Of a DNA stretch of 49,868 nucleotides, positions 2,802 through 48,823 are shown in pieces. Position 1 is the first letter of the stretch, and each line of letters begins with the position of its first letter. The position numbers and the translations under genes are program-made. The DNA is from Octopus sinensis (Eukaryota). The notes under the pieces were generated by a model that was not told where the DNA came from, did no database searches, and saw only the letters and a list, made by a program, of their open reading frames with translations. The stretch covers positions 1-49,868 of the forward strand of contig NW_021834329.1 in the NCBI RefSeq assembly GCF_006345805.1. Reading direction: 5' to 3'.

Positions 2802-2992
2802 TTGTCCCCCTAGCATTGCTTGACAACCGATGCTGGTGTGTTTACGTCCCCGTCACTTAGAGGTTCGGCAAAAGAGACCGATAGAATAAGTACTGGGCTT
2901 ACAAAGAATAAGTCCCGGGGTCGATTTGCTCGACTAAAGGCGGTGCTCCAGCATGGCCACAGTCAAATGACTGAAACAAGTAAAAGAGTAAA
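2599..2992 (+). mobile_element. SINE family A, near full length
   Basis: Same head, body and AAAAGAGT tail as the other family A copies. Confidence 0.92.
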
Positions 2993-3083
2993 ACCTAGTC
3001 ACAGTCGTTCGATACTGATCCTTGCAGTTAGCCGTTAACTAGAACATAACTAAGATCCAATACGGCGTCCGCCCAGATAATAT

Positions 3084-3487
3084 ATATTTCTTTACTGCCC
3101 ACAAGGGGCTAAACACAGAGGGGACAAACAAGGACAGACAAACAGATTAAGTAGATTACATCAACCCCTGTGCGTAACTGGTACTTAATTTATCGACCCT
3201 GAAAGGATGAAAGGTAAAGCTGACATTGGTGGAATTTGAACTCAGAACATAGCAGCAGACGAAATACCTATTTCTTTACAACCCACAAGGGCTAAACACA
3301 GAGGGGACAAACAAGGACAGGCAAACAGATTAAGTCGATTACATCGACCCAGTGCGTAACTGGTATTTATTTAATCGACCCCGAAAGGATGAAAGGTAAA
3401 GTCGACCTCGGCGGAATTTGAACTCAGAACGTAACGGGAAACGAAATACGGCAACGCATTTTACCCGGTGTGCTAATGTTTCCGCCC
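3084..3487 (-). mobile_element. tRNA-derived SINE family B with tandemly repeated 3' module
   Basis: Reverse complement of ...CTGAGTTCAAATTCCGCCGAGGTCGACTTT.CCTTTCATCCTTTCGGGGTCGAT...AAGTACCAG...CCCCTTGTGGG...AAAGAAATA, present twice. Confidence 0.9.
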
Positions 3488-7659: not shown

Positions 7660-8100
7660 TACATACATACATACATACATACATACATACATTCATACAT
7701 ACATACATACATTCATACATACATACTTACATACACACATAGATACATACATACATACATACATACATACATACATACATACACACACACATAAATACAT
7801 ACACACATACATACACACATACATACTTACATAAATACATACATAGATACACGCATAAATACATACATACATAATTCATACATACATACATACATACATA
7901 CATACATACATACATACATACATACACATACATACATAAATACATAAATACATAAATACATACATACATACATACATACACACATAAATACATACATACA
8001 TACATACATACATACATACATACATACATACATACATAATGCATACATATACATACATACATATATACATGCATACATACATACGTACATACACACATAC
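7660..8100. repeat. (TACA)n microsatellite
   Basis: Long imperfect ATAC tetramer run. Confidence 0.97.
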
Positions 8101-9604: not shown

Positions 9605-10298
9605 GTTAGTTAGTTAGTTAGTTAATTTGGCTCAAAAGCAAATAGCAAGGCCATGTAGGGGGACATGGAGTTAAGTACAAGGTGGTGTTCATGTAAAGAG
9701 TTCAGGCCACTTGAGGTCCAGGGAGGCTTTGAACAAAGCGGTCGTCGGCATCTTCACCATCTCATCTGGCAGCTTGTTCCACGGACCCGCAACCCGGACG
9801 GAGAAAGCTCCACTCCTTCGATTGAGATGAAATCGTCGCAGGTAGAGCTTTTCGGAATGACCCTGCAGCCGACGCTCCGGAGCAGGAGTGAAGAACAGCT
9901 CTTTCGAGAGGTTACACTTCCCGCTTATGATGTTGTGGGCGAGAATGAGATCACCACGGCGGCGGCGTTTTTCAAGAGAATAAAGGTCGAGCGTCCTCAG
10001 CCTTTCTTCGTAGGACAAATTTTTGAGACCATGAACCAGGCGGGTAGCCAGCCTCTGGACTCTTTCGAGGTGCTGTATGTCTTTGAGGAGATAAGGAGAA
10101 GAGGCTTGAATCCCATACTCCAATATGGGTCTCACCAGCGTGACATAGAGTGGCAGGAATATGGCTGCTGTGAGCATTCCGAATGACCGTCGAATCAAAA
10201 ACAGAATTCCGCGCGCTTTGTTGGCATCATGGACGCACTGGGCCGAAGGCGAAAAGGAGGAATCCACCAAGATACCCAGGTCCTTTACCTGATCGGTC

Positions 10299-10301
<3 letters not shown>
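9605..10301 (-). mobile_element. 5'-truncated CR1-clade LINE: ORF2 C-terminus, 3' UTR and (TAAC)n tail
   Basis: KDLGILVD...LVRPILEYG...KDIQHLERVQRLATRLV...LSYEERLRTLDLYSLEKRRRRGDLI...WNKLP...FKASLD are hallmark CR1 ORF2 post-RT motifs. Stop at 9689-9691, TAAC repeats at 9605-9624, inserted in (TA)n. Confidence 0.95.
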
Positions 10302-10341
<40 letters not shown>

Positions 10342-10343
<2 letters not shown>

Positions 10344-10970
10344 GGATTAAGCACATAAATGCGAAACAAGATGGTGAAAATAGTATTCGAAGACCAGAGA
10401 TAGAGTAATATTCTTTATTAAACAGAAGTAAAAATATTACAAAAACTGTTACTCAGAGTTTAAACAGTTTTCTAAGACAGTTTTGTTTAGACAGTTTTTT
10501 CAATAATTATTCAGACTGTTGCTCTAGTAATGAGGCTAAAACACGCAGATTGAAGCTGTTTGGCACAGATTGACATTACACTCTGTTTTAACGTTTTAGG
10601 TCACTTCCGCTATTTACAAGAAGCGACCTAGAAGAACCAAGCGTTTTGGAGGAGAAGCGATTTTTCGCATGTGTGATGAGCTGTGGTGCCAAAAATATAA
10701 CCAAAGAACGAAGATGTACTCAATTTATATATTTTTAAGGATAGAATCTTACAGAATATTATGATGGTCTACTGGTTTCGCGTTTCGCTTGAGAAAGAGA
10801 GAGAATCGAGATTTCTACATCTTCCAGTGAGTTCTTTATCGTTTTCTATTATGGTATTTTAACGGAGACATTTTGATACTCTGACGGAGGAACGGAAATT
10901 ATTAAGTCAAAACACGCCTTACCTGAACGAGGAATATTCGTCAAAGACAGGTAAGTAAAAATTTCTTTCT
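10342..10970. mobile_element. Probable Penelope-like repeat fragments
   Basis: Abuts (TA)n; minus-strand GAAACCAGTA and CTGGAAGATG half-hammerhead-like motifs near 10770-10830; family assignment is tentative. Confidence 0.3.
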
Positions 10971-34259: not shown

Positions 34260-34414
34260 ACGTTTCGTTACGTAAACGTACTTTTCATATTTTATTTCAT
34301 TTTTTTTGTTTTTTTTGGGGAGGTGGTTAATTTTTTTTTTTTTTTTGCAATGTTAATGTTATGCTAATGTCATGTTAATGGCATGTTAATATTATGTCAA
34401 AAAAATACGTCAAA

Positions 34415-34474
<60 letters not shown>

Positions 34475-34631
34475 CCTTATTATTACCCTGTAGTGTTATG
34501 TTATGTTAATATATATATATTGTTACTGTTGTTGTGTTTATTACTCAATTGTTTTGTTTTTTTAATTGTCAATAATTTTGGTGTTTCCATAAGTTCTTTG
34601 TTTTCTAAACAGTATGCTTTTTGCTACCCTG

Positions 34632-34684
<53 letters not shown>

Positions 34685-34766
34685 CTCTCTGACCAACCGT
34701 CCCTCCAGCCCCGCAACAAAAAGAATTCCTGAAGGGCCGGCCCCTACCGTCTCTATAAACCAAATC

Positions 34767-34829
<63 letters not shown>

Positions 34830-35048
34830 ATATATATATGTGTATATATATGTGTGTGTGTATATATATATGTGTATATATGTGTGTGTGTGTGTATATA
34901 TATGTGTATATATATGTATGTATATACATGTCTATATATATGTATGTATATACATATGTGTATATATACATGTGTATATATATGGGTATATATATGTATA
35001 TATATATGTATATATATATATATGTATATATATGTATATGTATATATG

Positions 35049-35079
<31 letters not shown>

Positions 35080-35405
35080 GTATATGTATATATATATGTA
35101 TATATGTGTATATATATATGTATATATGTGTATATATATATATGTATATATGTGTATATATATACATGTATATATGTGTATATATATGTGTGTATATATG
35201 TGTGTATATATATATATGTGTATATGTATATATATATGTGTATATATGTGTATATATATATATATATATTTGTGTGTGTATATATGTATATATATATATT
35301 TGTGTGTGTATATATGTATATATATATATATGTACATTCCTTTAAAGAATGTAACAGGTGGGAGACGAATATATGACCTACACGCTACTCATATAGAGAA
35401 GCCTG

Positions 35406-35445
<40 letters not shown>

Positions 35446-36264
35446 GTATATATAGACAGTGAAAGAGGAATACACTTCTTAGTATATGTAGATGTACGTG
35501 TATATATGTGTGTGAATATGTACACACATGTGTGTGTATAGTGGAGATAGAGAGAGCACTGTCATTTGGCGGAATTGATACCCTGACCAAAGGTTTGAAA
35601 TTTTATTTTTGTTTGTTTCTATTTTGCTGTTGTTACTTTGTTTCTTTGCTTTATTATTATTATTATTATTATTATTGTTATCTCAAGGCTTTTGATGTTG
35701 TCCTCACATCTGCTACTTTCGCTTGCCCTCTCCTCAACTCACGCTTGTTATTGTTACATATTGTGTGTTCAATTAATGTTTTGTTGCTGTTGTTACTGTG
35801 CATAATCGTTTCATTCGTGTTGTTTGTAATATATCTCATATTATGTTGCATTATGTTGTGTTACGCAACTCCCAGTATAAAATGTTTGTTGTAACTTTGT
35901 TAGTGTGTGCCGTTGGATATTCATTTCGTTTTAAACGGTTGCAGTGGAAGCAGTAGTGTCAATGGTAATAATAATAATAGTTGTTCCTCTTCTTCTTGTT
36001 TAATTCTCGTTATTACTTCTGTTTTTGTTGTTGTCAGTGTTACACAAAGTTCCTTCATTTCCAGCGTATCTCAGTTTTCTTCTTATTATCATTACCATCA
36101 TCATACTTGTTTATTTTGAAGTGGAGGAAAATCGGAGAGGGAGTCATGGGAGAAAAAATTGTGTATATGGCGGTGGAGAGAATGGTGGGGGGGAATTCGG
36201 AGAGTTAGGGAGACAATGAGGGCGGCGGGGGTTGTGGGGAAAAATGATTCTTGTATTTCGCCGT
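34260..36264 (-). other. Pax6: Probable Pax6 3' UTR (distal end undefined)
   Basis: Follows the stop codon; A-rich on the minus strand with several AATAAA hexamers (plus-strand TTTATT near 36110, 35650, 35602, 34291); interrupted by (TA/TG)n and (CT)n tracts. Confidence 0.5.
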
Positions 36265-36380
36265 TCACTGTAGGCGTGGCCAGTATTGTGACGTCATGGA
36301 AGTCATGTGATGCGTGCTCATATCTTGTGGACCTCCACCCGGCACCTGTATTGGTACCGATACTCCTGGTGAGATAAGAC
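36265..36380 (-). CDS. Pax6: Pax6 last coding exon (C-terminus of the PST transactivation domain)
   Basis: Minus strand: pyrimidine tract ...tttttttctctctctcAG|GT CTT ATC TCA CCA GGA GTA TCG GTA CCA ATA CAG GTG CCG GGT... = (G)[37 protein letters not shown] with TGA at 36267-36265. Matches the diagnostic Pax6 C-terminus (human [15 protein letters not shown]...SQYWPRLQ). This frame is not in the ORF track. Confidence 0.97.
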
Positions 36381-36751
36381 CTGAGAGAGAGAAAAAAAAA
36401 CGAGAGTTAGTGAGAGTGTCTCAGTGAATGCTTGTAATGTGTGGAGTGTGCGACAGACAGACAGACAGACAGACAGACAAAAAGTGGATGAAGAAAGAGA
36501 GATGGTGGGGTGAAAATAAGTAAAAGACACAGAGGAAGGGTGAGAGAGAAGAATGAAGATTGCGAGTGTATATGAGAGGATGTGTTGAAGTGACGTAGGC
36601 GGGTGAGTGTGATCAATAATCTCGTATTCACATTCATTCATATGTATAGAATAATTCTTAAAGGAGAATACTGTTGACAGTAACCTCGAATTTTCGGCTC
36701 GTTCATCCGTTAAGGACTGTCAATAATATTCTTTTAGATCAGATCAAAGAT

Positions 36752-39054: not shown

Positions 39055-39183
39055 CTGTCGAAGCTCCGTTGGTGGAATGCGAGGTCATGTGCGATTGCAT
39101 CCCTGCGGCTGGATTGCAAGACGACCGCGAGTAGTTACTTAACGTGAGGGGGTCGTAACTTCTGGCCGTTCCTGATACATAAT
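39055..39183 (-). CDS. Pax6: Pax6 penultimate coding exon (PST domain), 129 nt, phase 1-1
   Basis: Acceptor tatatcttgcAG|AT, donor ACAG|GTAATT. Encodes (D)YVSGTARSYDPLTLSNYSRSSCNPAAGMQSHMTSHSTNGAST(G), similar to vertebrate Pax6 GRSYD...MQTHM...TTSTG. Splices in frame onto 36380. Confidence 0.95.
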
Positions 39184-42457: not shown

Positions 42458-42742
42458 TCCCGGACCGGGCTGCGTGCTGTGTTCTTGAGCAAGACACTTT
42501 ATTTCACGTTGCTCCAGTTCACTCAGCTGTAGAAATGAGTTGCGACGTCACAGGTGCCAAGCTGTATCGGCCCCTTTGTCTTTCCCTTGGATAACACTGG
42601 TGGCGTGGAGAGGGGAGGCTGGTATGCATGGGCGACTGCTGGCCTTCCATAAAACAACCTTGCCCAGACTTGTGCCTCAGAGGGTAACTCTCTAGGTGCA
42701 AACCCATGGTCACTCATGACCGAAGGGGGTCTTTACCCTTTT
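42458..42742 (+). mobile_element. 5'-truncated CORE-type SINE family D
   Basis: TGTGTTCTTGAGCAAGACACTTTATTTCACGTTGCTCCAGTTCACTCAGCTGTAGAAATG (MIR/CORE-like), 3' tail different from family E; inserted in (TA)n. Confidence 0.75.
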
Positions 42743-42779
42743 ATATATATATATATATATATAAGTAACTGTGTAGATG

Positions 42780-43435
42780 TTAGAAAATATATAAATATAT
42801 ATATATGTTAGAATATATAGGGAAATAAATATACAGATATTGAAATATATATAAATATATAGATGTTACAATGTATATATAAGTATGTAGAAATATATAA
42901 AGATATATATATATATATATATACACATTCACACGTGTTAAAATGTATATATAAATATGTTGAAATACATATATATAAATATATAGATGATAAATGTGTA
43001 TATAAATATGTTGAAATCTATATAAATAAAAAAATATATATATATATATTATCATATATATATATATGTTGAAATACATATATATCAAAAATTATAGATG
43101 ATAAAATGTATATATAAATATGTTGAAATCTATATAAATTATATATATATATATTAAAATGTATATATAAATATGTTGAAATCTATATAAATATATATAT
43201 ATATTAAAATGTATATATAAATATGTTGAAATATATATATATAAATATATAGATGTTAAAATGTATATATAAATATGTTGAAATACATATATATAAATAT
43301 ATAGATGATGAAATGTATATATAAATATGTTGAAATGTATATATATAATATATATATATATATATGTACACACACACACATATATACACACACATGTTAA
43401 AATGTATATATAAATATATAAAGATGTTAAAATAT
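42780..43435. repeat. AT-rich minisatellite
   Basis: Recurrent AAATGTATATATAAATATGTTGAAAT unit. Confidence 0.85.
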
Positions 43436-45392: not shown

Positions 45393-46098
45393 TTTTGAGT
45401 ACTCTCTGTTTTGGTATCGTAGAATTATCGTTATCTCGAAGGTGAATCTACTTTTATGCAAATGTTTATATAAGTATGCCTATATACATACAAATATGAA
45501 TATATAATTGCAAATATATATATATGTATTAGCGTAAAACACGTGTATATATTTATACATACACAAAGCTATATATATATACTTACGTATAAATTTACAC
45601 ACACACATAAATATACACGCGTGTGTATTATATATAAATACACATATACAAATATATCTAATATATATATATATTATACAAATATATATGTATATATATA
45701 TTATATATACAACTATATATGTATGTATATATATATATGATATATACAAATATATATATATGTATATATATATATATTATATTATATATACAAATATATA
45801 TGTATGTATATATATACATAATATACATGTATATGCATCTATATGCATTTATATATAATTACATATTCAGCATATATATAAATATACTTATAAGAAAATA
45901 ATAATAATGATAATAAAAATAACATTAATAATATAAAATATATAAAAAAAATAAAATTTAAAATTAAACGATAATACTAATATTAATTAACTAAATAAAT
46001 AAATGATAAATAAATAAATAAATAAATATGAAATACTCAAAATAAGTAAAATAATAATCAATAATAACAATAGAACCACGTGACTGAGAAAATATGAC

Positions 46099-46215
46099 CT
46101 TGCCAAGCACGTGAGGTTTCCAGCATATTTCCAGTATCCTTAGTATCGTACTCAAGGTTCGGTTCCATGTCTGACTTTATTCTGCTAAGCCCTTCTTTGT
46201 ACCATTCCAACATAT
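46099..46215 (-). CDS. Pax6: Candidate Pax6 alternative cassette exon in the PST domain, 117 nt, phase 1-1
   Basis: Acceptor ctatttctccatcttcacactgatttcttcAG|AT, weak donor CAAG|GTCATA. Open in the Pax6 frame: (x)MLEWYKEGLSRIKSDMEPNLEYDTKDTGNMLETSRAWQ(D). Unique-sequence island between AT-rich tracts; same phase as the downstream exon. Confidence 0.7.
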
Positions 46216-46434
46216 CTGAAGAAATCAGTGTGAAGATGGAGAAATAGACAGGTGCGAGGGTGTGATATATTTTGGAAGGGGAGGCGGTAGGGATAATAAT
46301 AATAATAATGATAATAATGTTGTTTGTACTGAAATGTATAGAAACGTTGTCGTTAGAGGCGGCATTTACAGAGATGACGTGTTAGAGGAGGAGGTATTTA
46401 CAGAGATGATGGTTTTAAGTTGCTGTTTATTTAT

Positions 46435-46656
46435 TTATTTACTACCCACAAGGAGCTAAACACAGAGGGGACAAACAAGGACAGACAAACGGATTAAGTC
46501 GATTATATCGACCCCAGTGCGTAACTGGTACTTAATTTATAGAACCCGAAAGGATGACAGGCAAAGTCGACCTCGGCGGAATCTGAACTCAGAACGTATC
46601 GGCAGACGAAATACGGCTACGCATCTCGCCCGGCGTGCTAACGTTTCTGCCAGCTC
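46435..46656 (-). mobile_element. SINE family B
   Basis: Family B reverse complement. Confidence 0.9.
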
Positions 46657-47487
46657 TTATTGTAATCTTTTAGAGATGCTGATGTTATTTTGGGCTGTAT
46701 TTTTTGATAGTAACAATTTTATAAGTGATGGTGTTGTTTGTGGCAGTTACATTGGTGATAAGGATGTCGTTGTTGTATGTACAGGTATTTATAGAGATGA
46801 TGGTTGTGGGCGTGATATTTGTAAAGGTCTATAAAGAAATGGTGTTGCTGGACTTGTTCTTACTGGTGGTGGTAAATATAGAGCTGATAGTGTTGGTGTT
46901 GCATGTTTGCTGTTTAGCTCTGATTTTAGTTTGTTTGTAGGGTTTTCTGTTGAATGTCTTTTGTTTTAAGTTGTTGCTATTTTGATTATGCTCAGATCCA
47001 TATCGATCGAGCAGACCTTATTATCAAGGGTATTTTAACCAAGACTACCTCACTTTTTTTCTATTTTCAAGTAACACAGAAACAAATAACACAACTGGTT
47101 ATTTTCGCAGATGATGGGTTGTAATCTGAACAAAATTTAACTGTTTGCTGAGTAATTAGTTATTTTACTAGTACGACTGGTTTTAATAAGTTAAGATTCA
47201 TTTTGGATAGTGGCTTCTATAGAGATGATGGATATATTCGCTTTGATATTGTCTTTCAGTAGTTGCTGGATCTCATTTTTCATGTTGGGGGAAATGGTAA
47301 AGGATGTCTTGGTATTGAGGATTTATAATACAGTTGTTAGTGGTGTTGATCAGGGTTGGACTTTATTCTCCTAAGAACTTTTACCATTTTAACATATCCG
47401 ACGAAATCAATGTAAAGACAGAAAAATGAGTGTATTCAGGAGTAGAGATGTTTAGGAATGCACGCTGATATTGCATAATCGTTGACT

Positions 47488-47789: not shown

Positions 47790-47820
47790 GGCAGATAGAT
47801 AGATAGATTAATAGACAGAG

Positions 47821-47886
<66 letters not shown>

Positions 47887-48036
47887 GCAAATAGTTAGAT
47901 AGATATATTGATAGAAAGATAGATAGACAGAGAGATAGATAGATAGATAGACAGGTAGGCATATGTATAGGTAGGGATAGATTGATGGATGGATGGATGG
48001 ATGGATAGCTGGATAGGCAGATAGATAGATGGATAG

Positions 48037-48090
<54 letters not shown>

Positions 48091-48272
48091 GCAAATAGTT
48101 AGATAGATATATTGATAGAAAGATAGATAGATTGATAGACAGAGAGATAGATAGATAGATAGACAGGTAGGCATATGTATAGGTAGGGATAGATTGATGG
48201 ATGGATGGATGGATAGCTGGATAGGCAGATAGATAGATGGATAGAGATAGATAGATAGGTAAATAGATAGAT
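47790..48272. repeat. (GATA)n/(GGAT)n microsatellite with higher-order duplication
   Basis: GATA runs with repeated GGCAAATAGTTAGAT and GACAGGTAGGCATATGTATAGG interruptions. Confidence 0.95.
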
Positions 48273-48823
48273 ATGCAAACAGATAGAGTGAGAGAGGTGA
48301 GTGAGTAAGTGGAAGATTGCTAAGTGGAAAGACACAGATAACTAGAAAAATGGGTTTTACACGTTGCTGTTAATTAAAAAGAGCAATTTGTTGGCAACTC
48401 GTGTTTTGACGGCTGAGAGCAACACCGGCAACCACTAAGAGAGAGTTCGGATGAGCAAAACAGTTCTTCTGGCCGCCATATATACATACGCAGAAGTGAA
48501 TATAAATTCACACATACACTTGCGTCAGAAATTAATTAGCACTTCTCAAATTTCTACATTAAATAGGTTAAATCAATTAACCTATGAGCTGTTCAAAACG
48601 TCTTACGCGATGAGAAAACTTAGTATGGTGTGATTTCGGTCCTTGCGAGGCGCTACCTATATCTATTAAACAAAGGAAGATTTGTCTGCATCCGCACTCC
48701 AAGTTGTTGTTGCACTGCTATGTCAACTTCATAAGGCTGTAGACTCTCAAACTGCTCTGCAAACAAAGTTACGTCATCGTTCTGCGCAACAGTGAACTCG
48801 CAACAAAGCAATAGTTCGAGATA

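Follow-up and report, generated by a model that had tools for sequence, protein, structure and literature searches.

The closest described counterpart of the exon reported here comes from squid. Yoshida, Yura & Ogura (2014, Sci Rep 4:4256; PMC3942700) described five Pax-6 splice forms in the pygmy squid Idiosepius paradoxus, two of which bear a 120-nt exon 6 that encodes 40 residues within the PST domain. The same insert was found in Loligo bleekeri, and RT-PCR and qPCR on eyeballs, optic lobes and embryos established that inclusion of exon 6 is alternative (PMC3942700). The insert was called squid-specific in that study, which examined no octopod, and, as the initial annotation of the present locus also supposed, it was proposed to tune transactivation (PMC3942700). 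Two lengths are attached to the squid forms: the text and Figure 1 legend of the paper give 499 aa for the 'authentic' form; the database 'authentic variant' (P0101) has 459 aa, and the 499-aa database entry is 'variant form3' (P0004), the one with the exon 6 insert.

Vertebrate Pax6(5a) provides a second point of comparison. Its 14-aa exon 5a is likewise a lineage-specific, in-frame cassette that gives rise to a second Pax6 isoform; however, exon 5a lies in the paired domain and alters DNA recognition (PMC3942700), whereas the octopus exon described below belongs to the activation region, shows no sequence relationship to exon 5a and has an independent origin.

Here we examine a window of 49,868 nt that constitutes one whole contig (C10800) of the 2.72-Gb, 13,516-contig Octopus sinensis assembly. 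On the minus strand of the window, a Pax6 gene is represented by its two terminal coding exons and, upstream of these, by a 117-nt exon that is probably an alternative cassette (Table 1). Taken as a whole, it is very probable that this segment is a real Pax6 exon orthologous to squid exon 6, is likely skipped in some transcripts, and is predicted to alter transactivation or partner binding by the PST region when included.

Table 1. Features of the Pax6 locus in the window.
Feature	Position	Strand	Description and basis
Decayed partial copy of the exon's 5' border	47359..47427	minus	last ~30 nt of intron and first ~43 nt of exon
3' splice site of upstream intron	46216..46255	minus	pyrimidine-rich tract, AG at 46217-46216; match of the X3 contig ends here
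Pax6 exon (probable cassette)	46215..46099	minus	117 nt, phase 1-1, coding; spliced CDS identical to RefSeq, RNA contig, squid orthology
5' splice site GTCATA	46093..46098	minus	weak; junction 46099->39183 required to reproduce P0002
Next constitutive exon	39055..39183	minus	129 nt, phase 1-1, DYVSGTARSYD...NGASTG; equivalent of squid exon 7
Last coding exon	36265..36380	minus	ends ...SQYWPRLQ; stop TGA at 36267-36265
Probable 3' UTR	34300..36264	minus	14 runs contain half or more of the words sampled from 34300-36400

Extent of the Pax6 gene in the window

The two terminal coding exons align along their length with Pax6 proteins from molluscs, a brachiopod, a nemertean, an annelid, a scorpion and two fishes, and the alignments with mollusc, annelid, arthropod and vertebrate proteins place the conserved C-terminal PST tail of Pax6 within them. 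A run search with the last exon and 2 kb beyond it returned 24 runs from three coded organisms, all of them contigs with a guessed RNA label. The 14 runs from which the 3' UTR is drawn are small contig sets whose RNA label is guessed in the same way; they include run X3, which contains spliced RNA (see below).

The paired-domain exons lie on a separate contig, C8955 (positions 2964-3335 and 7773-7988), and are 97-100% identical to the Octopus vulgaris protein P0108. Residues 249-361 of P0108, comprising the C-terminal half of the homeodomain, the linker and the SSYSCMLP exon, were not found in the assembly, and a scan of C8955 over the initial 30,000 of its 30,093 nt did not recover them either; similarly, a query for the upstream exon (MAESYRDL..SSYSCMLP) gave no match in the O. 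sinensis genome assembly. Pax6 is thus fragmented in this assembly, with only its 3' portion in the window, and we infer the link between the paired domain and homeodomain and the exons of the window from orthologous proteins.

Several further observations concern splice forms elsewhere in this gene. Reading past the donor at 39055 (39054-39008, minus strand), the frame stays open through ..G NWHSTTGGGFLYFV before reaching a stop; isoform X2 of Octopus bimaculoides (P0001) ends in NWHSMAGGGFLYFM, near-identical to the O. sinensis NWHSTTGGGFLYFV, which points to a retained-intron or alternative 3' end form predicted in O. bimaculoides. In alignment A3, O. vulgaris P0108 has the same gap as squid 'variant form1', which arises by skipping of exon 4; the gap may reflect either a splice form that is conserved or an incomplete annotation. 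The orthologue of squid exon 3 (the insert of P0099) gave no match at E<1 in contig C8955 or in the window.

Repeats and other open frames

Positions 46426-46500 are occupied by a very high-copy repeat. In each of the four runs whose cover was examined, hundreds to thousands of contigs match it at 85-99% likeness, and their depths add up to as much as ~8e5. This is probably a SINE-like element that recurs through the window, where it is seen as open reading frames such as ..GWLASYLPHSHS... A 241-codon open frame at 9692-10414 (minus strand) reads ..LVRPILEYG..LERVQRLATRLV..YEERL..L.SLEKRRRRGDLI.. and gave no match in Pfam; we take it to resemble the C-terminal part of a non-LTR retrotransposon ORF2. 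Microsatellites are present in the 3' region and the introns, comprising (AT/GT)n over ~560 nt at 34770-35331, (TA)n over ~620 nt at 42742-43365, and ~120 copies of (AGAT)n at 47793-48273.

Gene models that contain the exon

A protein search with the cassette peptide plus its flanks yielded one cluster of three octopus models. Splicing 46213..46099 to 39183..39055 and 36380..36265 reproduces XP_029656791.1 (P0002) letter for letter; this O. sinensis 'paired box protein Pax-6-like' of 119 aa is the model on this very contig, and it starts at the ATG of the exon (46213) because the contig lacks the upstream exons. The remaining two models are from O. bimaculoides: XP_014777067.1, Pax-6 isoform X1 (171 aa; P0003), and XP_014777068.1, an 'uncharacterized' isoform X2 (148 aa; P0001). 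Both contain the identical 39 residues internally, between ...NASSYSCMLP and DYVSGTARSYD. All three RefSeq models use the same exon with the same borders as 46215..46099, but they are automatic and partial, and none labels the exon as alternative or ties it to the squid exon.

The 117-nt segment is a genuine, spliced Pax6 coding exon that is already annotated in public gene models. The initial annotation had called it hidden, which does not hold, since these borders are already in use in RefSeq models from two Octopus species, including the model on this contig. Its other structural statements stand. Its anatomy (46099..46215, 117 nt, phase 1-1, AG acceptor, weak GTCATA donor) is correct to the base; the assignment to an in-frame exon of the C-terminal (PST) region of Pax6 agrees with the internal position of the segment in P0001 and P0003 and with the identity of the spliced coding sequence to P0002; the junction 46099->39183 is needed to reproduce XP_029656791.1 exactly; and the peptide was rightly described as 39 acidic and aromatic residues, given the composition reported below.

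Splice signals and coding content

The intron upstream of the cassette exon terminates in ...ctgatttcttcAG at 46217-46216, and 15 of the 20 bases that precede the AG acceptor are pyrimidines. The donor reads caaG|GTCATA, an AAG|GTCATA context that departs from the consensus at +3 (C), +5 (T) and +6 (A). Weak donors of this type are typical of regulated cassette exons. The first two bases of the exon, AT, complete a codon and a single G is left over at its end, giving the same 1-1 phase as the exon at 39183. Its peptide, (D)MLEWYKEGLSRIKSDMEPNLEYDTKDTGNMLETSRAWQ, has 39 residues: 9 acidic, 5 basic and 4 aromatic (2 W, 2 Y), with S, T and P together contributing just 7. The stop-to-stop frame across the exon spans 107 codons (46058..46381 including the stop, also delimited as 46061..46381); counted from the first ATG (46213), it has 51 codons and falls below the usual 60-aa cut.

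Comparable stretches are common in this intron. The 10,685 nt lying upstream of 39183 (GC 32%) contain 143 AG..GT stretches of 60-300 nt whose length is a multiple of 3 and which are open in phase 1, so the bare sequence features of the cassette exon do not rise above chance. It is the homology and the RNA evidence that set it apart from these stretches.

RNA evidence for splicing

Cover of 46066-46500 was examined in four runs from four studies (X1, X3, X4 and X20). In X3, one contig (174 nt, depth 20.7) agrees with every base of 46099-46216 (0 mismatches). The two ends of this contig (29 and 27 nt) differ from the flanking genome and depth in the adjoining intron is zero; accordingly, the exon is spliced at exactly the 46215/46099 borders. 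A final G in the upstream exon, which the split GAT codon demands, would account for the extra matched base at 46216. Only one of the four runs has a contig on the exon; X1, X4 and X20 have none and are uninformative either way.

The X3 contig also bears on whether the segment might be an alternative first coding exon transcribed from an internal promoter. P0002 does begin at the M of MLEWYK, encoded by the ATG at 46213, and no upstream Pax6 exon is present on the contig. However, the contig is a fragment, and Pax6 residues 249-361 were not recovered from the assembly; the AG acceptor of the exon is a normal one, and the X3 contig extends 27-28 nt upstream of 46215 with sequence other than that of the genomic flank. 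Furthermore, the segment is internal in O. bimaculoides and in squid. An origin from an internal promoter is accordingly extremely improbable, and we treat the segment as an internal exon.

Correspondence with squid exon 6

Idiosepius P0004 (GenBank 'variant form3', 499 aa) carries a 40-aa insert, DMLEWYKEGLTRLKSDSELSAEQESGDLLGNLMESSRAWQ, at the junction occupied by the octopus cassette. Octopus and squid inserts are identical at 25/39 positions (33 positives) with one 1-codon in-frame indel, and the flanking exons of octopus and P0004 are identical at 125/132 positions. The first 10 residues (DMLEWYKEGL) and the last 5 (SRAWQ) are invariant between the two inserts, whereas the acidic middle has diverged. 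That P0004 contains exon 6 is borne out by the published primers: 'insertion target f, exon 6' encodes LMESSR, a stretch within the P0004 insert, and the exon-5 and exon-7 primers translate to NASSYSCM and GTARSYD, respectively (PMC3942700). The squid and octopus exons belong to the same gene, occupy the same NASSYSCMLP/DYVSGTARSYD junction, are in frame and are of near-equal size, namely 120 nt (40 aa) in squid versus 117 nt (39 aa) in octopus. On this comparison of sequence and position, we assign the octopus exon as the orthologue of squid Pax-6 exon 6.

The initial annotation had pointed to a pygmy squid splice variant with a PST-domain exon of ~40 aa and suggested that this might be the counterpart; the shared junction, the 25/39 identity and the exon-6 primer inside the insert support that suggestion. 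It had also named a tBLASTn comparison with squid Pax6 as a check, and tblastn of P0004 on the window indeed gives a match at 46240-46091 with an E value of 4e-11. Its remark that it recognised no vertebrate Pax6 counterpart of the peptide likewise agrees with our alignments, in which the two vertebrate Pax6 proteins and the non-cephalopod models have none.

The insert is rare among the proteins compared. It is absent from 12 of the 14 cephalopod proteins in one alignment, the 12 including the Idiosepius authentic form, Doryteuthis, Euprymna, Argonauta, O. vulgaris and six run-derived proteins, and from 9 of the 11 proteins in a second alignment, namely O. vulgaris and eight non-cephalopods. 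A search with residues 379-418 of P0004 recovered only P0004 itself among 3 candidates of 274-874 aa.

The squid comparison also addresses the proposal that the exon is splicing noise or a gene-prediction artefact that has no role at the protein level. The 143 chance AG..GT open stretches in the same intron, the weak donor, and a peptide that contains no known domain are all compatible with such a proposal. Yet the frame and both peptide ends are kept between octopus and pygmy squid, with 25/39 identical residues and an indel that preserves the frame; squid transcripts with the exon are regulated by stage and tissue (PMC3942700); and the exon is present in a spliced X3 contig at depth 20.7. 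We therefore regard noise or artefact as very improbable.

Inclusion and probable skipping in octopus

Inclusion of the exon in octopus is documented by the spliced X3 contig and the three RefSeq models. Evidence for skipping comes from two octopod models, O. vulgaris P0108 (458 aa) and Argonauta hians P0098, which join SSYSCMLP|DYVSG directly and so lack the insert, and from the size of the 174-nt contig. Both of these octopod proteins are gene predictions; the C-terminus of P0108 is identical to the exons of the window.

The 174 nt of the X3 contig equal 28 nt of upstream exon, the 117 nt of the cassette and 29 nt of downstream exon, which is the size of the inclusion branch of a bubble in a 31-mer graph. 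This arithmetic depends on shared borders: AT opens both the cassette and the next exon, and G closes both the upstream exon and the cassette. The word length of 31 is the value that we take, from the tool text, to have been used for the run assemblies. We regard the bubble size of the contig as indirect evidence for a skip path, and hence for the skip form, in X3 itself.

Alternatively, the exon could be constitutive in octopus, the octopod models that lack the insert being annotation omissions. Consistent with this, the exon is included in the model on this contig and in the two O. bimaculoides RefSeq isoforms, with no skip model on record for O. bimaculoides; moreover, the skip junction is not directly seen in RNA, the upstream exon being absent from the window and not found in the assembly. 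Set against it are the O. vulgaris and Argonauta models that join SSYSCMLP to DYVSG, the termination of the X3 contig 28 and 29 nt past the exon, where a second path would branch, the weak donor, and the alternative use of the orthologous squid exon (PMC3942700). Constitutive inclusion is thus improbable. Regulated skipping of the cassette exon in octopus, to which the models that lack the exon, the weak donor, the shape of the X3 contig and the behaviour of the squid orthologue all point, is likely.

Origin of the exon

A 231-nt region containing the exon matches only itself in the genome and is thus single-copy. Within the same intron, 1.2 kb upstream, a decayed partial copy of its 5' border is identical at 56/73 positions (77%) by blastn, with an E value of 2e-10 within the window. 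In the copy, CGG stands where the CAG acceptor would be, and TAA interrupts the frame; with the acceptor lost and a stop present, the copy is not coding. A degenerate 28-nt pattern, with 2 mismatches allowed, occurs only in the exon and in this local copy across the 2.7-Gb genome, which identifies 47359-47427 as a decayed local duplicate rather than a member of a transposon family.

Exonisation of a dispersed repeat or transposon was considered as a source of the exon and ruled out, since the 231-nt region matches itself alone and the 28-nt pattern occurs in two places.

Judging from its presence in both octopus and squid, the exon probably predates the octopod–decapod split. An origin of that age favours a functional exon over noise.

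Predicted structure and role

Within the activation region, the insert comes immediately after the invariant SSYSCM(L/I)P motif, and its acidic and aromatic composition stands out within an otherwise S/T/P-rich, disordered stretch. AlphaFold modelling of P0003 with the 14-row alignment A3 gave a low-confidence structure (mean pLDDT 40.9) with only two helices of at least 4 residues, at 50-67 and 79-97 of P0003, which lie over the conserved ends of the exon. The only residues at pLDDT 50-70, 16 in number, fall between positions 55 and 89 of P0003 and hence within the exon. The model thus offers a weak hint that the insert may form two helices. Pfam returned no family for P0003 or for the 38-aa peptide. 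In the ESM Atlas the best feature score was 0.85, below the 0.9 bar; the leads were disordered parts of other transcription factors, and the structure matches were short bacterial helices.

Splicing would decide whether 39 acidic and aromatic residues are inserted into the C-terminal PST region. Possibly, the inserted segment could act as a short structured acidic module that changes the activation strength of Pax6 or its choice of partners, leaving DNA binding untouched. An effect of the insert on transactivation or partner binding is entirely inferred, the best-supported mechanism being the one proposed for squid.

As a more speculative account, which we hold only tentatively and consider rather unlikely, the exon may trace to a single event in the coleoid ancestor, ahead of the divergence of octopus and squid, in which a local duplication of intron DNA gave rise to it and left the decayed copy as a relic; it may encode a two-helix acidic and aromatic module, with invariant DMLEWYKEGL and SRAWQ ends, that serves in Pax6 as a splice-controlled switch for activation or partner docking.

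Significance

The exon itself is known already: it is contained in public gene models, and an exon of its kind has been published for squid (PMC3942700). In the literature searched, including PMC5333810 and PMC11191162, we found no printed description of the octopus exon, although subscription articles or others outside that search may hold one. What the present comparison adds is modest: the octopus exon has an intact frame and unchanged peptide ends, so that exon 6, formerly described as squid-specific, is present in octopods as well. Apart from this presence in octopods, the result is confirmatory.

Among the few molecular leads on the parallel evolution of the camera eye in cephalopods and vertebrates is the diversity of Pax6 isoforms. 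For work of this kind, the octopus exon provides a precise target, comprising the junctions into 46215 and 46099->39183 and a 39-aa peptide with two conserved blocks, in an animal for which embryos and gene-expression tools are available. Were the account of a splice-controlled switch true, cephalopods would have in this exon an analogue of vertebrate Pax6(5a) that works through the activation domain and not through DNA binding.
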